The notes beneath the pieces were generated by a model. It saw only the letters and a program-made list of their open reading frames with translations. It was not told the origin of the DNA and searched no databases. Positions 12,937 to 33,310 of a DNA stretch of 48,751 bases are shown in pieces. The stretch's first letter is position 1, and each line of letters opens with the position of its first letter. The translations under genes and the position numbers were made by a program. The DNA comes from an uncultured Thermodesulfobacteriota bacterium (GTDB lineage Bacteria; Desulfobacterota; GWC2-55-46; JADFVP01), in NCBI GenBank assembly GCA_964510775.1, contig CAZEBZ010000005.1, positions 8,267-57,017 of the forward strand, read 5' to 3'.

Positions 12937-13773
12937 ATGGAGAATTTTTTCGGTAACTTCCCAAAGATCTTCAAAAAAATACTTTATATCTCTCTGGCGG
13001 CGCATATTATCGTACTTGTCGCCCTTGGCCTGTTCATGGGCAGCTCCAGGAAGGTCTTCTTCACCCCTGTGAGCACAGTAAGCCTTGTAGAGCCTGCAAG
13101 GCGGCATATTAAAAAAAGAACGAAGAAGGTTCGCCGCCGCAGGGTCAAAAAGAAGAAAAAAGCCGTTGTTAAGAGAAAGGCCTCAAACAAGGCCCTCGCG
13201 GCCAGGAAAAAAGCCCTCGCGGCAAAAAAAAGGGCGAAAAGAACCGCTAAACTACATGAAAAAGAGCTATCTACGGCCTTAAGCAAGATAAAAGAGAAGG
13301 TTCGTCTTAATGAGGAGCGAAGGCTTTTAGCCTCTAAGATAGAGGCCATTAAGGAAAGAGAAGCGGCAGAAGAGCGGGCAAGACGCCTCGCGAAGATACG
13401 CGGCGCCATAAAGGCCGCGCCTGCTGAAAAAACAACGCCTTCCCCCCCTGCCGCCACATCAACAGGGGCGAAGTCAACGGACATGAACATAAGATACAAG
13501 GCCTACTTCTCGCTCATAAGAGACCATGTACAGAACAACTGGATAGTGCCCGAGAGTTTTGATGATGAAAAAGTCTCAGTAATCGTATCCATACGTATCG
13601 ACAGAGGCGGCGAGCTTATCAAGAGCTGGGTAGAGAAAGGCTCGGGAAGCAGGCAGTTTGACAACTCTCTGCTAAAGGCCGTGCAGAAGGCATCGCCCTT
13701 TCCGCCTCTACCTGCGGATTTTACTGAAGACATACTGGAGACAGGCCTGAGGTTCTGCCCTCGCTGTGATTAA
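12937..13773 (+). CDS. tolA: TolA/TonB-family protein
   Basis: N-terminal TM with SLAAH, Lys/Ala-rich helical middle, TonB_C-like end (KASPFPPLP); lies between tolR and tolB. Confidence 0.85.
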   Translation: MENFFGNFPKIFKKILYISLAAHIIVLVALGLFMGSSRKVFFTPVSTVSLVEPARRHIKKRTKKVRRRRVKKKKKAVVKRKASNKALAARKKALAAKKRAKRTAKLHEKELSTALSKIKEKVRLNEERRLLASKIEAIKEREAAEERARRLAKIRGAIKAAPAEKTTPSPPAATSTGAKSTDMNIRYKAYFSLIRDHVQNNWIVPESFDDEKVSVIVSIRIDRGGELIKSWVEKGSGSRQFDNSLLKAVQKASPFPPLPADFTEDILETGLRFCPRCD

Positions 13774-13776
13774 GAT

Positions 13777-15102
13777 ATGATTCTTTTAACATACCTCTTA
13801 TTGATATTTTCCATCTGCCTCTCTTCGCGGCCAGCTGAGGCAAAGGTATATATTGACCTCACGGCACCATCGATCCGCAGGCTGCCCCTTGCCATTCAGG
13901 AGTTTCACTACCTCGGCGCCGACCCATACAGCATTAAAGAGAGAGACAGAGTAAAGTCTATAAGTGCGAGTATACTCAATACGCTAAAAAGAGACATGGA
14001 GTTCTCCGGAGTCTTTAAGACCCTTGATAACGAGGCATTTATCGAAGAGCCCGATGAAGCGGGCTTTGATATTAATGATATAAATTTTAAGGACTGGCGC
14101 ATGATAGGCGCTGATGCCCTTGTAGAGGGCAGGTTTCGCCTAATAGAAAAGAGGCTTATCGTAGAGGCACGGCTCTTTGACAGCGTACGCCAGACCATGA
14201 TAATGAGCAAGAGGTTCATAGGCAATCCCAATCACCCCGAGCGGCTGGCCCATTTTATCTCAGAGAGGCTCTACGAGGAGATAACGGGAAGAAAGGGTAT
14301 CTTTACGACAAAACTGCTCTTTGTCTCAAAAAAAGGCGGTAATAAAGAGATATACATCTCAGATTACGACGGCAGACACAGGGTTCCAATTACTTACAAC
14401 AGGTCTATCAACCTCTCTCCAAAATGGTCTCCCGACGGCAAGAAGATGATATACACTTCTTACAAGCGCGGTTATCCCTACCTCTATCTCTTTGACCTCA
14501 ATACTGGCCATGACGAGGTCATCTCAAGCAAAAAGGGCATTAACATAGGCGGCAGATTTAGCCCTGACGGGAAATCCATAGCCCTCACGCTCAGCACCAA
14601 GACGAGCCCCGACCTATTCCTCTTAAGATTGGGCGGAGGGGGCTACGAGCGCCTTACAACCAATTACGGCATTGACGTATCTCCCACCTGGTCTCCTGAT
14701 GGGAGAAAATTGGCATTTGTATCAGATAGAAGTGGAAATCCCCATATATTTGTGTTAGACTTGCGAACCAACAAGACTAAACGCCTCAGTTACGGCGGCA
14801 CATATAACGCCAGCCCGGCATGGTCCCCTGAGGGCAATCTCATAGCCTACGCGCGCGCCGACAGCGGCAAGTTCAATATATGGGTCTTAGACGCAAATGG
14901 CGGCAGACAGCACCAGCTTACATTTGACGGCAACAATAAATCCCCTTCCTGGTCGCCTGACGGCAGGTTCATCATCTTCAACAAAACCTCTAAGGGTGAG
15001 AGTTCCCTTTACGTCATGCAGGCAGATGGAACGGCAAGTCGAAAAATCCCAACAGGGACAGGTTATGCCAGTACACCGGCATGGTCGCCATTTCTTAATT
15101 AA
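13777..15102 (+). CDS. tolB: TolB beta-propeller protein
   Basis: Signal peptide, TolB_N domain, six PD40 repeats (SPxWSPDG type). Confidence 0.96.
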   Translation: MILLTYLLLIFSICLSSRPAEAKVYIDLTAPSIRRLPLAIQEFHYLGADPYSIKERDRVKSISASILNTLKRDMEFSGVFKTLDNEAFIEEPDEAGFDINDINFKDWRMIGADALVEGRFRLIEKRLIVEARLFDSVRQTMIMSKRFIGNPNHPERLAHFISERLYEEITGRKGIFTTKLLFVSKKGGNKEIYISDYDGRHRVPITYNRSINLSPKWSPDGKKMIYTSYKRGYPYLYLFDLNTGHDEVISSKKGINIGGRFSPDGKSIALTLSTKTSPDLFLLRLGGGGYERLTTNYGIDVSPTWSPDGRKLAFVSDRSGNPHIFVLDLRTNKTKRLSYGGTYNASPAWSPEGNLIAYARADSGKFNIWVLDANGGRQHQLTFDGNNKSPSWSPDGRFIIFNKTSKGESSLYVMQADGTASRKIPTGTGYASTPAWSPFLN

Positions 15103-21672: not shown

Positions 21673-22444
21673 AGGAGCGGATACCTTCCACGACAGACCG
21701 GGTTTCTGGAATAAACTCAAGGCCAAGTGGTATAAAGAGGGGCTCGCGGCCTCTACCTTTCCCTCTACTGTAGTCCCCTATATCCTCTCTCATGCAGCTG
21801 GGGCCGAGACATTCCTCGACGTAGGCGCGGGCTGCGGCAGCCTTGCGCTGCCTCTTGCGAGGGCCGGTAAGACCGTGACAGCCCTTGAGCCCGCCGCCGC
21901 CATGATGGCACTCCTTGATGAAGATATACAGAGCGAGGGACTAAAGAATATTACGACTATTACATCACCGTGGAAGGAGGGGTTATGTGAGACGCAAGAC
22001 GCAATAATCTGCGCCAATGTTCCTGGGTTATTAAAGGGCTCAACTGACTTTATTAAAGAAGCCAATGAGGCGGCAAAAAAATACGTCTTTATCATAGAGA
22101 GCGCCGACCCTGCGGCAGACAAATTCTATTACAAAGAGCTCTACCCCCTTATCTTCAACAGGCAATTTGGGCCAAAAAAGGACTACATCGCCACCTACAA
22201 CGCCCTTCACTCCCTGGGCATCTTCGCCAATGTACGCATTGTAGAGTATGACTTTGACCAACCCTTTGCCTCCATAGGCGATGCCCTTGAGTTCTGGAAA
22301 GAGCACATGTGCATCGTTACCGGTGAGTTTGATGAGACCCTTAAAAATTTTCTAAGTAAAAAACTCGTAAAAAAAGACGGCCTTCTTGTATCGAAGATCC
22401 ACAAAAGATCTGCTATAATCTGGTGGCCCACAGGCAGGTCTTGA
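21662..22444 (+). CDS. Class I SAM-dependent methyltransferase
   Basis: LDVGAGCG motif I and VTALEP; overlaps the AsmA-like gene by 11 bp. Confidence 0.9.
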   Translation: MANEGADTFHDRPGFWNKLKAKWYKEGLAASTFPSTVVPYILSHAAGAETFLDVGAGCGSLALPLARAGKTVTALEPAAAMMALLDEDIQSEGLKNITTITSPWKEGLCETQDAIICANVPGLLKGSTDFIKEANEAAKKYVFIIESADPAADKFYYKELYPLIFNRQFGPKKDYIATYNALHSLGIFANVRIVEYDFDQPFASIGDALEFWKEHMCIVTGEFDETLKNFLSKKLVKKDGLLVSKIHKRSAIIWWPTGRS

Positions 22445-22546
22445 GGAGTTAATATCACAAAAGCTTCTGATTAAAAAAAAACACCTCAATTTAGTATATT
22501 GACAGTAATTTAAAAAAATTCACAAAAAACTCTTGGAGGATACTTA

Positions 22547-22945
22547 ATGAGACTCATGAAAAAAACATTTTTAGCTTTTTTACTTCTCACCTTCTGTCTC
22601 ACAGCCTCAAAGGCCAGCGCCGATGATTCTCTTGCCCATACCATTAAGAGCGCCCTTTACGGAGGGGCGCTCGGCGGAATAGTCGCAGGCGCCGTAGTGC
22701 TGCTAAGCAGCGATACGAGCGGCAATCTCGGCTATATACCCACCGGCATAGGCGCAGGCGTTCTCATAGGCACGGCCTACGGCATTGCCACAAGCGAGGC
22801 CGTGCAGGACAGGGCCTTTGGCGAGATTAAGAACGGCAAATTCACCATGAACGTCCCCACGGTAAAGAGCACCTCAACCTTTGATGAAAAGTTACAGACC
22901 TACGAGACAGTAGAATCAATGGATCTGCTGAAAGTGCGGTTTTAG
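22547..22945 (+). CDS. Hypothetical exported protein with glycine-zipper helices
   Basis: GGAGG RBS, signal peptide ending ASA, GxxxG runs, terminal Phe. Confidence 0.8.
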   Translation: MRLMKKTFLAFLLLTFCLTASKASADDSLAHTIKSALYGGALGGIVAGAVVLLSSDTSGNLGYIPTGIGAGVLIGTAYGIATSEAVQDRAFGEIKNGKFTMNVPTVKSTSTFDEKLQTYETVESMDLLKVRF

Positions 22946-22965
22946 GCTTTAAAAAAACTTCCAAT

Positions 22966-22991
22966 AAAAAAGGGCGGGCAAAGCCCGCCCT
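22966..22991. terminator. Intrinsic terminator-like hairpin (U-tract on the minus strand)
   Basis: A-run then AGGGCGGGC-AAA-GCCCGCCCT. Confidence 0.65.
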
Positions 22992-23075
22992 AACGAAGTT
23001 AATATTTATGAGTTACACCTCGCTCCCATCTTACACACTAAGAACAAAAACTGAGGTAAAAAAGGAAATTTTACC

Positions 23076-23447
23076 ATGAGTAATCAAGGCCTGGAGATCG
23101 AAGAAAAAGTAAAACAAATACTACAGAAAGAATTCGGTAGACTCACAAAACAAAAGCTACCTATAGGAAAGAATAAAAAAGAATTTGACTTAGTTACAGA
23201 TGATGGCCAAGTGGTTATTGAAGTAAAAAGTTATAAACTTGGCAACGAAACTACCAAGAAGGCCGGATATTCTACGACTCGTAAACAAAGACTTGTCACC
23301 GCATGTGTGTATCTTGATAATATAAATGCCAAGAGGAAAATATTGGCATTAACAAACAAAGAGCTTCATGAACAATTCAGGCATGATATGACAGGAGATG
23401 GTTTATTCACTTCTGTTGAGATATTATATGTCCCTATAGATAACTAA
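23076..23447 (+). CDS. Small PD-(D/E)XK nuclease-like protein (AT-rich)
   Basis: Acidic N-terminal helix (LEIEEKV), then EFDLV...VIEVKS matching D-xn-E-x-K. Confidence 0.7.
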   Translation: MSNQGLEIEEKVKQILQKEFGRLTKQKLPIGKNKKEFDLVTDDGQVVIEVKSYKLGNETTKKAGYSTTRKQRLVTACVYLDNINAKRKILALTNKELHEQFRHDMTGDGLFTSVEILYVPIDN

Positions 23448-23448
23448 A

Positions 23449-23514
23449 ATTTTACCTGCCTTGTAGGTCAGGTAGAGCTAAGCTATAGACAACCTAAATA
23501 AACAACAAAAGGTT
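23449..23514 (+). repeat. Degenerate GTAG-type REP-like element, copy 1
   Basis: GCCTTGTAGGTCAGGTAGAGCTAAGC...GACAACCT aligns with 23829-23869. Confidence 0.8.
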
Positions 23515-23530
23515 TTTTTGAGGTATCAAT

Positions 23531-23812
23531 ATGTCCCGCCCTAAAGAACACAACTTATATAAAGTTCTAATATATTCTCAATTTTCATTCATCAAGAGAG
23601 GCATTAAAACTATAGATGAAATCTATAGTTCTGTTAAAGATCAGAATCCATCCCTTTGTGATGACTCATATTATTGTTCTAAAAACTGCCTCTCTGGCAA
23701 CGATCAAGCAGAATGGAAGCACACTGTTAGAAATGCTCTTCAGCGTCTTAAATCAAACAATGGCCCCATAGTATATACAGGCCGTAGGGGATTTTGGCAA
23801 TTTCTTCCCTAA
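23531..23812 (+). CDS. Small hypothetical protein, winged-helix-like (AT-rich)
   Basis: GAGG RBS; IDEIYSSVK...EWKHTVRNALQRLK...GRRGFW resembles a wHTH recognition helix plus wing. Confidence 0.65.
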   Translation: MSRPKEHNLYKVLIYSQFSFIKRGIKTIDEIYSSVKDQNPSLCDDSYYCSKNCLSGNDQAEWKHTVRNALQRLKSNNGPIVYTGRRGFWQFLP

Positions 23813-23820
23813 CACAGTAT

Positions 23821-23912
23821 ATTTTATAGCCTTGTAGGTCGGGTAGAGCAAAGCGAAACCCGACAACCTCATCGACAAAAAACGTTGCATTAATACAACT
23901 AACCCAACCTGC
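23821..23912 (+). repeat. GTAG-type REP-like element, copy 2, with an inverted partial partner (REPIN-like)
   Basis: GTAG followed by hairpin GTCGGGT-AGAGCAAAGCGAA-ACCCGAC; AACCCAACCTGC at 23901-23912 is a degenerate inverted arm. Confidence 0.8.
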
Positions 23913-23959
23913 GAAAAAATTCGACGGCCCTTACGTCTTCTTGACTTTAAGCCCCCCCC

Positions 23960-24748
23960 TTAAAACATATGACTACTCTTCATAAGCAGGCTAACGCCTA
24001 AGTAGGTAAATAAGAGCAGGCCAAAGCCGATTACCGTGGCTACGCAGAGGCCTCTTCCGCGCCACTTTCTTATATACCAGGCGTGCATAGCCCCAGCGTA
24101 ATAGAACCAGAGGATAAAACTCCAGATGCTCTTTGGCTCCCAGAGCCAGTAGGCCCCCCAGGCAAGGTACCCCCAGACAGCCCCTGATATCATGGCCCCG
24201 GAAAAAAGCAGAAAACCCCATAGCACGCCCTTACGGGCTATCTCCTCATATTTTTTCTGCCTATCGCCGCCCTTGCCTTCTCCCCTAAGGGAATAATAAA
24301 GATAAAGCACCGCGCCGGCAAAGGCCAGTGTAAATAGAGCATAAGCGGCAAAGGACAGCGTCACATGAGACTCGAACCAGCGCGTGCGAAGTATGAGGTT
24401 AAGGGGACGGCCCGCCTCATAGCGCGAGAGGGCAAAGATAATGGCGAGGATAGATACGGGCAGCGTAATCAGACCCGGGGCCCGCTCCCTGTAGCGAAGG
24501 ATTACGATAATCGTTACAAGAGCTACGCACCATGAGTAAAAGACAAGTGTCTCGAACATGGCCGCCATTGGGGCGTGACCGGTGGCAGAGATCCTTAAGA
24601 TAAGGGCTATTGAGTGGGAGATAAAACCAGCGAAGATAAGCCCCGTTGAGATACGCCCCGTAAGTCGGCATTTTCCTGAGCGCCCGGTGAGAATAACCAA
24701 GACGTCAAGAAAATAAAATACGGCCGCGGAGTAAAAGAGTAACCTCAC
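23960..24748 (-). CDS. ccsA: Cytochrome c biogenesis protein CcsA-like
   Basis: WWD domain WGYLAWGAYWLWEPK; His residues in TM segments; GTG start overlaps the queE stop. Confidence 0.85.
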   Translation of the reverse strand: MRLLFYSAAVFYFLDVLVILTGRSGKCRLTGRISTGLIFAGFISHSIALILRISATGHAPMAAMFETLVFYSWCVALVTIIVILRYRERAPGLITLPVSILAIIFALSRYEAGRPLNLILRTRWFESHVTLSFAAYALFTLAFAGAVLYLYYSLRGEGKGGDRQKKYEEIARKGVLWGFLLFSGAMISGAVWGYLAWGAYWLWEPKSIWSFILWFYYAGAMHAWYIRKWRGRGLCVATVIGFGLLLFTYLGVSLLMKSSHMF

Positions 24749-33229: not shown

Positions 33230-33310
33230 TTTTGGTGGGCAGTGCCCACCCTACAAGACTTTATTTTTGCGGGCAGTCTATATTTTGGTGGGCAATGCCC
33301 ACCCTACAAG
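33230..33310 (-). repeat. Two direct copies of a second GTAG-type REP-like palindrome, 53-bp period
   Basis: Minus strand CTTGTAGGGTGGGCA(C/T)TGCCCACCAAAA at 33230-33257 and 33283-33310. Confidence 0.88.

Follow-up and report, generated by a model that had tools for sequence, protein, structure and literature searches.

Within the 48,751-nt stretch of DNA analysed here (the window; contig CAZEBZ010000005.1 of assembly GCA_964510775.1), the genome of an uncultured Thermodesulfobacteriota bacterium contains two small open reading frames (ORFs) on the + strand, each followed by a copy of a repetitive extragenic palindrome (REP). ORF1 (23076-23447) encodes 123 amino acids (aa) and ORF2 (23531-23812) encodes 93 aa, with GC contents of 0.34 and 0.37, respectively, against a gene mean of 0.486 (standard deviation 0.044); ORFs with a GC content below 0.40 make up 4.2% of those called in this genome. 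In 200-nt windows, the GC content is 0.315-0.39 over positions 23000-23799 compared with 0.45-0.60 on either side. The left flank is a conserved lipoprotein-like gene (22547-22945, + strand), whose counterparts beside ccsA in G008, G005, G004, G003 and G006 are 59-77% identical, and the right flank is a conserved ccsA-like cytochrome c assembly gene (23960-24748, - strand; PF01578, 126 bits), with counterparts of 76-87% identity in the genus. Here, G000 denotes the genome holding the window (2.09 Mb in 176 contigs, 94.6% complete), G001-G008 the other genomes of the genus, and L0xx the fetched loci. A first-pass annotation had described the locus as an integron-like array in which foreign genes were captured one at a time at REP sites, with a REP-associated tyrosine transposase (RAYT) acting in trans. 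Its description of two compact AT-rich ORFs on the same strand, each with a repeat copy after the stop codon, was confirmed by the ORF, GC and repeat analyses.

The two repeat copies have a common core of 26 nt (23458-23483 and 23829-23854, spacing 371), in which 24 of the 26 positions are identical. A 21-mer pattern of the repeat matched the window at two sites but none of 100 shuffles, and at up to 3 mismatches these two sites were its only occurrences in the G000 assembly, with 0 matches in the control. The downstream copy, REP2 (23828-23866, + strand), is an intact family-A unit with GTAGG at 23834-23838, a 7-bp stem and a 13-nt loop, and it conforms to the definition of GTAG-tagged REPs, with GTAG directly beside a G+C-rich stem-loop in a unit of 20-40 nt. 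The upstream copy, REP1 (23457-23492, + strand), is a decayed family-A REP that keeps its GTAG head (GTAGG at 23463-23467) but has a broken hairpin: 31 matches over the 36-nt unit are accompanied by a 3-nt deletion in the 3' arm and further changes. The earlier description of an intact hairpin in the second copy and a partly lost one in the first was therefore correct. The shared element is likewise real, but the length of about 65 bp first assigned to it was too long: the family unit measures about 39 nt (23828-23866), the only part matched by other contigs of a microbial-mat metagenome before they diverge. Beyond this unit the likeness of the two copies is weak (local-alignment shuffle p 0.14, anchored global p 0.007, post hoc). 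A local duplication of 65-80 nt bracketing ORF2 was consequently set aside and kept as a hint only, the flanks beyond the unit being unconvincing. Exceptional folding was also rejected, the DNA folds of both copies being ordinary (z -1.86 and -0.92, + strand).

Two further REP relics lie in the same spacer. The inverted partial arm noted after the second copy is real and corresponds to a decayed family-C REP (23883-23913, - strand), the heads-outward doublet partner of REP2. It aligns with an intact CGTTGGGTTGA..AACCAACCCAACCTACG element of G008, G003, G004 and G001, its head having changed from CCTAC to CCTGC, and the doublet is intact in these sister species. On the other side of the ORFs, a decayed family-B REP (23006-23040, - strand) aligns with an intact B(-) REP situated after the lipoprotein gene in G008 and G005.

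Comparison of the spacer among sister species, measured from the lipoprotein stop to the ccsA stop, revealed that it is a variable insertion hotspot. It spans 1014 bp in G000, where it holds ORF1 and ORF2, and contains only REPs in G005 (229 bp), G006 (337 bp), G004 (372 bp) and G008 (455 bp). In G003 (1068 bp) it carries a SAM-methyltransferase gene and three REPs, and in G002 (2926 bp) an Acyl_transf_3 gene, a methyltransferase fragment and a 142-aa ORF, with no REP detected by the pattern finder; in G001 and G007 the two flanking genes are on separate contigs. The empty or differently filled sites that the first-pass annotation expected in relatives thus exist, with REP-only spacers in four genomes and other genes in two. 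REP2 is orthologous to the REP beside the 3' end of ccsA in G008, G003, G004 and G001, and it is collinear with that REP together with its 3' flank; in all four genomes the orthologue is part of an inverted A(+)/C(-) doublet beside ccsA, the partner of which has decayed in G000. From these alignments, the ancestral spacer can be reconstructed as B(-)...A(+)-C(-), and ORF1-REP1-ORF2 lies inside it in G000. Because B, A and C REPs are present in sister species that lack the ORFs, the REPs are residents of the site and not passengers of the genes, which contradicts the idea of REPs as cassette-borne recombination sites.

The opposite order of events, in which the REPs arrived together with the genes as a donor ORF-REP block swapped in by homologous recombination via the flanking core genes, seems improbable to us. 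Wholesale differences in spacer content between species with conserved flanks would fit such a swap, as would the presence of family-A REPs, including the TCGGG variant, in several congeners and the abundance of the REP core in the same community (summed depth 1107 vs 27). However, REP2, its C(-) partner and the 3' flank are collinear with the orthologous doublet of G008, G003, G004 and G001, and the ORFs were found in none of the other 8 genomes of the genus, save for a weak 28% ORF1 match in G002. A metagenome search retrieved one contig identical over 22400-24035, from a run that is possibly the source sample, and contig joints skipping ORF1 or ORF2 were not found in public runs, in which only contigs were searched and rare variants are invisible.

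The repeat of the locus is a genuine REP of the REP/RAYT repertoire of the genus. The REP2 core has many matches of 85-97% identity, both within the genus and in further families of the order. Exact copies of the family-A core number 25 in G004, 16 in G001, 10 in G003, 2 each in G006, G007 and G008, and 1 each in G002 and G000, with 0 in G005 and 0 for the reversed-pattern controls. RAYT genes with family-A copies on their flanks are present in G004, G003 and G001, in agreement with the initial identification of the repeat as a GTAG-headed REP of a RAYT-associated family. The RAYT of G004 is a 180-aa ORF (L044 1973-2515) located between A(+) at 1917 and A(-) at 2518, and it scores 200.8 bits on the NCBIfam model REP_Tyr_transpos (cut-off 80). 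G000 encodes a single RAYT on contig C63 (1879-2418), scoring 186.2 bits on the same model (NF047646, cut-off 80), with the motifs PDHLHTIW and YIHYNPV (HUH and Tyr, respectively) visible by eye; Pfam Y1_Tnp alone gave 21.2, under its cut-off of 23. This protein is 51% identical to the G004 RAYT, and its gene is flanked by inverted family-G copies (GTAGGGTGGGCNNTGCCCACC), not by family A. A RAYT of the family-A-flanked kind was not found in the G000 assembly, which is 94.6% complete. The search for the repeat and for a RAYT suggested at first pass therefore gave a mixed outcome: a RAYT gene is present, but it is flanked by family G, and the repeat core occurs at two sites only. By the same token, the statement that there is no integrase or transposase applies to the locus itself and not to the genome, and a RAYT is encoded elsewhere in the genome, although not one of the kind that family A flanks.

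A pattern census of G000 recovered 37 family-G, 9 family-B and 3 family-A REPs (family A with a looser pattern), 49 in all, with 0 in the reversed-genome control; the addition of the decayed REP1 brings the total to 50 in the counts below. All census REPs of G000 have the head (A)GCCTTGTAGG, and family-G counts across the genus range from 0 to 68. In both G000 and G004, the family that flanks the RAYT gene is also the abundant one (G 34 and A 1 in G000; A 25 and G 3 in G004). Since family abundance tracks the RAYT flank in this way, family A in G000 represents a minor subfamily, in decay, within a REP superfamily that extends over the genome. Many REP matches in the draft genomes lie less than 2 kb from contig ends, and 7 of the 20 fetched REP regions ran into an end. 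REP clusters thus seem to break these draft assemblies, and counts of REP neighbours are biased because such clusters are often at contig ends. As a side observation on REP clusters, contig C48 of G004 (13624-14690; L043 2125-3191) carries an A/C' doublet with identical flanks repeated 810 bp apart, followed by a third A copy.

As regards placement, 14 of the 50 REPs of G000 follow the stop codon of a called ORF at a distance of no more than 30 nt, 12 of these 14 being co-oriented with the gene, and the genes concerned include housekeeping genes of normal GC content, e.g. hisA. REPs at large have likewise been located mostly less than 20 bp from gene 3' ends, according to the part of Di Nocera 2013 (PMC3733652) that deals with their position. 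In view of both observations, the alternation of stop codon and REP is generic, and the repeat after each stop, which had been taken as the sign of a cassette, loses that meaning.

Regarding the genes themselves, ORF1 is probably a small PD-(D/E)xK-like nuclease, a fold with an alpha-beta-beta-beta-alpha-beta core and D...(D/E)xK catalytic residues. Eleven homologues were found in a large protein collection, with E49, V50, K51 and S52 invariant, and the Pfam matches, NERD (18.3, cut-off 22.1) and UPF0102, both remained under cut-off. The structural model (pLDDT 83) has the predicted order H-E-E-E-H-E-H-E, in which E49-V-K51 fit the PD-(D/E)xK core, and Foldseek returned weak matches (best E 5e-3, TM ~0.5), mostly to PD-(D/E)xK nucleases. 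Within the order, ORF1 occurs in 3 of 77 genomes, namely G000, G053 (59% identity) and G002 (the weak 28% match, on another contig); the G053 relative forms the N-terminal part of a 325-aa ORF beside a WYL-like gene (by eye). Relatives of ORF1 are fused to longer C-terminal parts or adjoin an HTH_73 protein.

ORF2, in turn, is probably a small protein with a winged-helix fold, akin to the domain at the N-terminus of HNH restriction-like endonucleases. Its eight homologues of 90-94 aa keep the conserved Cys/His cluster, and within the order it is present in G000 only (1 of 77 genomes). The model (pLDDT 84) is a winged helix, for which the DpnI winged-helix domain was the best match, followed by MukE and forkhead domains, all of them weak (E 0.012-0.1). 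By tblastn, ORF2 aligns at 33-43% identity with the first 90 residues of ORFs from five haloarchaeal plasmids; three of these five ORFs are annotated as HNH endonucleases, and the one examined has 393 aa. Twelve genome loci with ORF2 relatives were distributed over Geobacteraceae, Syntrophales, Gammaproteobacteria, Acetobacteraceae, Blastocatellia, Entotheonellaceae, Streptomycetaceae, Burkholderiales, Bacteroidales and others, with nuclease-type neighbours at three of them: HNH in L032, a methyltransferase and Mrr_cat in L036, and HNH_2 in L041. Alignment of ORF2 by hhalign with the C-terminal extensions of the fused ORF1 relatives gave nothing, nor did BLASTP against the HNH protein encoded on G000 contig C1. 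For both ORFs, sequence searches of PDB yielded chance-level matches only, and PADLOC and NCBIfam returned nothing; the phage collection held no match to either, and the plasmid collection none to ORF1.

Since the ORF2 domain is fused or adjacent to HNH or Mrr_cat domains, and ORF1 relatives are fused or lie beside HTH_73, a partnership is plausible in which ORF1 and ORF2 would work together as a split restriction-like nuclease and its DNA reader, a tentative proposal that we would lean slightly against. The arrangement resembles that of Mrr and type IV restriction enzymes (winged helix with PD-(D/E)xK or HNH) in that a nuclease-fold protein stands beside a winged-helix protein. Unlike those enzymes, the putative system is split into two small genes, nuclease first and winged helix second, which match no family model at cut-off and whose functions are predicted only. 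Their low GC content, their scarcity within the order (3 of 77 and 1 of 77 genomes) and the occurrence of ORF2 relatives in distant phyla indicate that both ORFs are foreign, as originally supposed.

Relatives of ORF2 occur elsewhere as integron cassettes. The attC sites of such cassettes have R'' (RYYYAAC) and R' (GTTRRRY) cores around an imperfect palindrome. Locus L036, a contig of a Blastocatellia metagenome-assembled genome (MAG), contains three near-identical 86-nt attC sites (GCCTAAC...GTTARGC) at 197-282, 1296-1381 and 1850-1935, downstream of which lie an ORF2 relative and then the methyltransferase and Mrr_cat genes; by its sequence organization, L036 is best described as an integron cassette array with restriction-type genes. 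In L034 a tyrosine recombinase with a Phage_int_SAM_4 domain is encoded close to an ORF2 relative, in L040 attC-like cores flank an ORF2 relative, and in L025 an attC-like site is found upstream of an ORF1 relative. From these contexts, ORF2 relatives, and possibly ORF1 relatives too, are true integron cassettes in other genomes.

These contexts, together with the short same-strand ORFs each followed by a structured repeat, would also suit a degenerate integron array at the present locus, an attC cluster without integrase whose repeats are attC sites. Such an array is very improbable. A crude scan for attC cores plus complementarity found 0 sites in the whole window but recovered the three of L036, and the best match in G000 to the integron integrase model TIGR02249 reached 78 bits vs a cut-off of 265 in the 94.6% complete assembly, which encodes two ordinary tyrosine recombinases on contigs C83 and C7. 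Moreover, in relatives this repeat is found flanking RAYT genes and downstream of housekeeping genes. The first-pass annotation was thus right to describe an array with neither attC nor integrase, but its REPs are not gene-linked sites: of the 18 loci that harbour a relative of either ORF, 17 have no GTAG REP within 600 nt. The compact, co-oriented small ORFs, each with a folded repeat behind it, are common to this locus and to integron cassettes, whereas the repeat here is a RAYT-associated REP that belongs to the host spacer. The integron analogy is hence apt for the lifestyle of the genes elsewhere and not for the repeats here.

We consider it probable, with appreciable room for doubt, that the locus reflects an ordinary REP/RAYT system and a variable hotspot holding two foreign genes of cassette type, the gene-repeat-gene-repeat pattern being mostly a by-product of REP placement. 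In the sequence of events that we propose, a resident REP cluster, seen today as a B(-) relic, A(+) and a C(-) relic, would have filled the convergent lipoprotein-ccsA spacer, and two foreign low-GC genes would have entered this permissive, break-prone spacer by recombination in the G000 species alone. REP1 would derive either from duplication of REP2 or from family-A transposition while the family was still active. The REPs would rest just after the stop codons and be transcribed as 3' hairpins, which may serve as transcript ends. The capture of foreign genes one at a time at REP sites by a RAYT does not fit this picture, the REPs being resident, and we found no evidence for RAYT catalysis of capture.

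Conserved flanks with turnover of the genes between them are well known, both from the 'minimal mobile elements' of Neisseria and from defence-island hotspots. The present spacer resembles these core-gene hotspots in its conserved flanks, its species-specific small cargo (often of nuclease or defence type), its empty sites and the lack of a mobility gene inside, and differs from them in that the hotspots here carry REPs. The repeats, for their part, resemble GTAG-REP and BIME-REPIN systems with RAYT (Nunvar 2010, PMC2817692; Bertels & Rainey 2011, PMC3116915; Ton-Hoang 2012, PMC3333891; Di Nocera 2013, PMC3733652): they have the same GTAG head, G+C-rich hairpin and unit of ~39 nt, the same extragenic sites often after stops, inverted doublets and a single RAYT flanked by its own REPs, and their family abundance tracks the RAYT-flanking family in the same way (G000, G004). 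In contrast with those systems, copies are few here (~50 per 2.1-Mb draft, in three families), and the family present at the locus is a relic. Foreign DNA at or within REP clusters also recalls the use of REPs as targets by insertion sequences (IS; Tobes & Pareja 2006, PMC1525189), but the inserted DNA here has neither a transposase nor terminal repeats of its own.

Several observations weigh against this bystander reading and must be set against it. The first concerns the neighbours of REPs. Genes were called crudely, as the longest non-overlapping ORFs of at least 70 aa after removal of ORFs below 200 aa that overlapped a REP; 45 of the 50 REPs of G000 fell in spacers between called ORFs and the other 5 at contig ends. 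The share of spacers adjoining an ORF of GC content below 0.40 was then compared between REP-bearing and other spacers by Fisher's test. Over the whole assembly, such spacers amounted to 11 of 33 REP-bearing spacers vs 61 of 1203 others (p 8e-7), which exceeds the pure bystander expectation, and the difference persisted when the locus was excluded (9/31 vs 61/1203, p 2.7e-5) and when, in addition, the null was limited to spacers of at least 80 bp (9/31 vs 40/770, p 4e-5). About seven loci account for the signal (C1, C41, C63, C72, C23, C38 and this locus). A second observation is that REP1 and REP2 have a common TC variant and an AACCT tail, absent from the other copies of the subfamily, which hints at a duplication linked to the insertion of ORF2; the AACCT tail is also similar to the tail AACCCCCT carried by the orthologous G004 and G001 copies. 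Third, an HNH gene occupies different REP-bearing spacers in G000 and G004, with reciprocal REP-holding empty sites. Fourth, in an Acetobacteraceae MAG, an ORF2 relative (gene GC 0.43, locus 0.64) lies between inverted REPs of the host and directly upstream of the host's RAYT gene (199 bits). Furthermore, the ORF1 and ORF2 relatives share no locus (0 of 18 other loci), which argues against an obligate pair. Finally, the reading suffers from the crude longest-ORF calls and from MAG assemblies that break at REP clusters.

The HNH gene and two other cases illustrate REP-bracketed low-GC genes of G000. On contig C1 (62944-64036, L063), family-G REPs bracket a 198-aa gene for a protein with winged-helix and HNH domains (GC 0.33) together with a 66-aa ORF; the 198-aa gene is type IV restriction-like (PADLOC mREase_IV, 9e-10). 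The corresponding site is empty in G004, with a 394-bp gap containing a REP doublet, and is occupied in G003 by HEPN and GmrSD_N genes with four REPs and in G001 by a different ORF of GC 0.36. A copy of the HNH gene in G004 (74% aa identity) is located downstream of hisA beside REP relics, and the hisA-hisF spacer of G000 contains two REPs without the HNH gene. On contig C41 (10739-12682; L065 2243-4182), tRNA-Ser(tga) is followed by a family-G REP, a 554-aa gene and then G and B REPs; this gene is of the GmrSD_N/DUF262 type (GC 0.33; PADLOC PDC-M55C and HEC-05), and in G001 a tRNA of the same kind is followed by only 299 bp of hairpin relics. On contig C63 (1700-3060, L066), the RAYT gene is enclosed by family-G REPs, with a family-B REP upstream, and directly after it, between G(-) and two G(+) copies, lies a 149-aa membrane-like ORF (GC 0.36) of no known family. 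A special REP(-)[cargo]REP(+) architecture, considered for G000 contigs C1, C24, C41 and C63 and for L035, was rejected as confounded by the co-orientation of REPs (12/14) and by doublets.

These observations are the ones that would favour REP-based capture, in which RAYT nicks or strand exchange at REP hairpins would admit single foreign genes and build an integron-like array with the enzyme encoded elsewhere. The enrichment of low-GC neighbours, the defence-type genes bracketed by REPs on C1, C41 and C63, the differently filled and empty C1 sites, the HNH gene at different REP sites in two species, the ORF2 relative between REPs beside a RAYT gene in another phylum, the lack of co-occurrence of the two gene families and the direct REP copies that bracket ORF2 all point that way. 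Even so, we regard capture of this kind as unlikely. The REPs belong to the resident, ancestral content of the site, nearly all loci of ORF relatives lack a GTAG REP, and 22 of the 33 REP spacers of G000 have ordinary neighbours. In G000, where family A is a relic, no RAYT of the type that this family flanks was found, and no excision or empty-site form was seen among contigs, the only material searched.

The enrichment was, in addition, weak in the sister species. A replicate in G001, covering 70 of 90 contigs (1.43 of ~2.2 Mb), gave 0/22 REP-bearing vs 7/411 other spacers on the ten largest contigs (no test applied), 3/23 vs 8/398 on the 60 smaller contigs (p 0.018) and 3/45 vs 15/809 over all sampled contigs (p 0.064); with a genome-specific GC threshold, set at the mean minus 2 standard deviations, the last comparison became 5/45 vs 74/809 (p 0.6). 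Among 19 REP-hit loci of five congeners, 15 had a REP by the patterns, and 3 of these 15 had a neighbour of GC content below 0.40. The association of REPs with low-GC neighbours, expected at first pass, is thus real in G000 and weak in the sister species. For Pseudomonas, a portion of PMC3390384 reports that mobile elements and strain-specific genes are located in REP deserts, which also speaks against capture; at variance with that rule, a minority of REP spacers here hold foreign defence-type genes. A literature search on REP or REPIN sequences with defence hotspots or cargo, for which most subscription journals were out of range, retrieved nothing relevant beyond that article.

One broader extension would treat REP doublets, chiefly those near RAYT genes, as break-prone landing pads for single foreign defence genes that move between REP spacers. 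It would cover the ORF1-REP-ORF2-REP array, the HNH and GmrSD-like genes of G000 and the ORF2 relative of the Acetobacteraceae MAG, and we regard both the idea and this coverage as a long shot. If it were true, REP/RAYT systems would also constitute a low-throughput gene-capture platform without an integrase. The role of REPs and of their domesticated transposases is a long-standing puzzle, and if REP clusters favour the uptake of small foreign genes, REP/RAYT systems would have a part in gene flow and the clusters could be used as an inexpensive sequence marker in the search for new defence genes of uncultured bacteria. Under the by-product reading that we prefer, the locus carries a caution instead: a gene-repeat-gene-repeat order arises wherever REPs settle after stops, and a claim of cassettes needs junction-level or biochemical evidence. 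In either case, this is the first description of two small families, a stand-alone PD-(D/E)xK-like protein and a stand-alone winged-helix domain otherwise fused to HNH, both of which recur in integron arrays and hotspots.

The remaining features of the locus are minor. No transposase ORF, of the Y1 or any other type, was found at 22900-24000, and the arrangement departs from that of IS200/IS605 elements or miniature inverted-repeat transposable elements in that REP1 and REP2 are direct and not inverted and the sole short direct repeat is a 10-nt word around ORF1. This word, AAATTTTACC, stands directly 5' of the ORF1 start codon (23066-23075, + strand), and a second exact copy runs from the last base of the ORF1 stop codon to REP1 (23447-23456, + strand); the pair could be a target duplication or a chance occurrence. 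A similar ATTTTA also precedes REP2. A known RNA or a tRNA remnant was ruled out: the 19 matches of an Rfam E-value scan over 22900-24000 were all weak, with none overlapping the repeats and none at gathering score, and ARAGORN found 0 tRNAs in the window. A promoter scan produced consensus-level matches only, 7 vs 3.3 expected.

On the left side, a G+C-rich hairpin (22971-22991), terminator-like on the - strand, lies 3' of the lipoprotein gene, and its stem (GGGCGGGC...GCCCGCC) resembles, by eye only, the stems of family-G REP variants of G001. Elsewhere in the window, two family-G REPs (GTAGGGTGGGCA.TGCCCACC) at 33234-33254 and 33287-33307 (- strand) are situated downstream of a - strand gene, with neighbours of normal GC content. 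Lastly, pairs reported by the hairpin finder on contigs C29 (6570-8069) and C109 (1580-3079) of G000 have identical sequence, flanks and spacing in opposite orientation, which suggests a duplicated stretch in the assembly.

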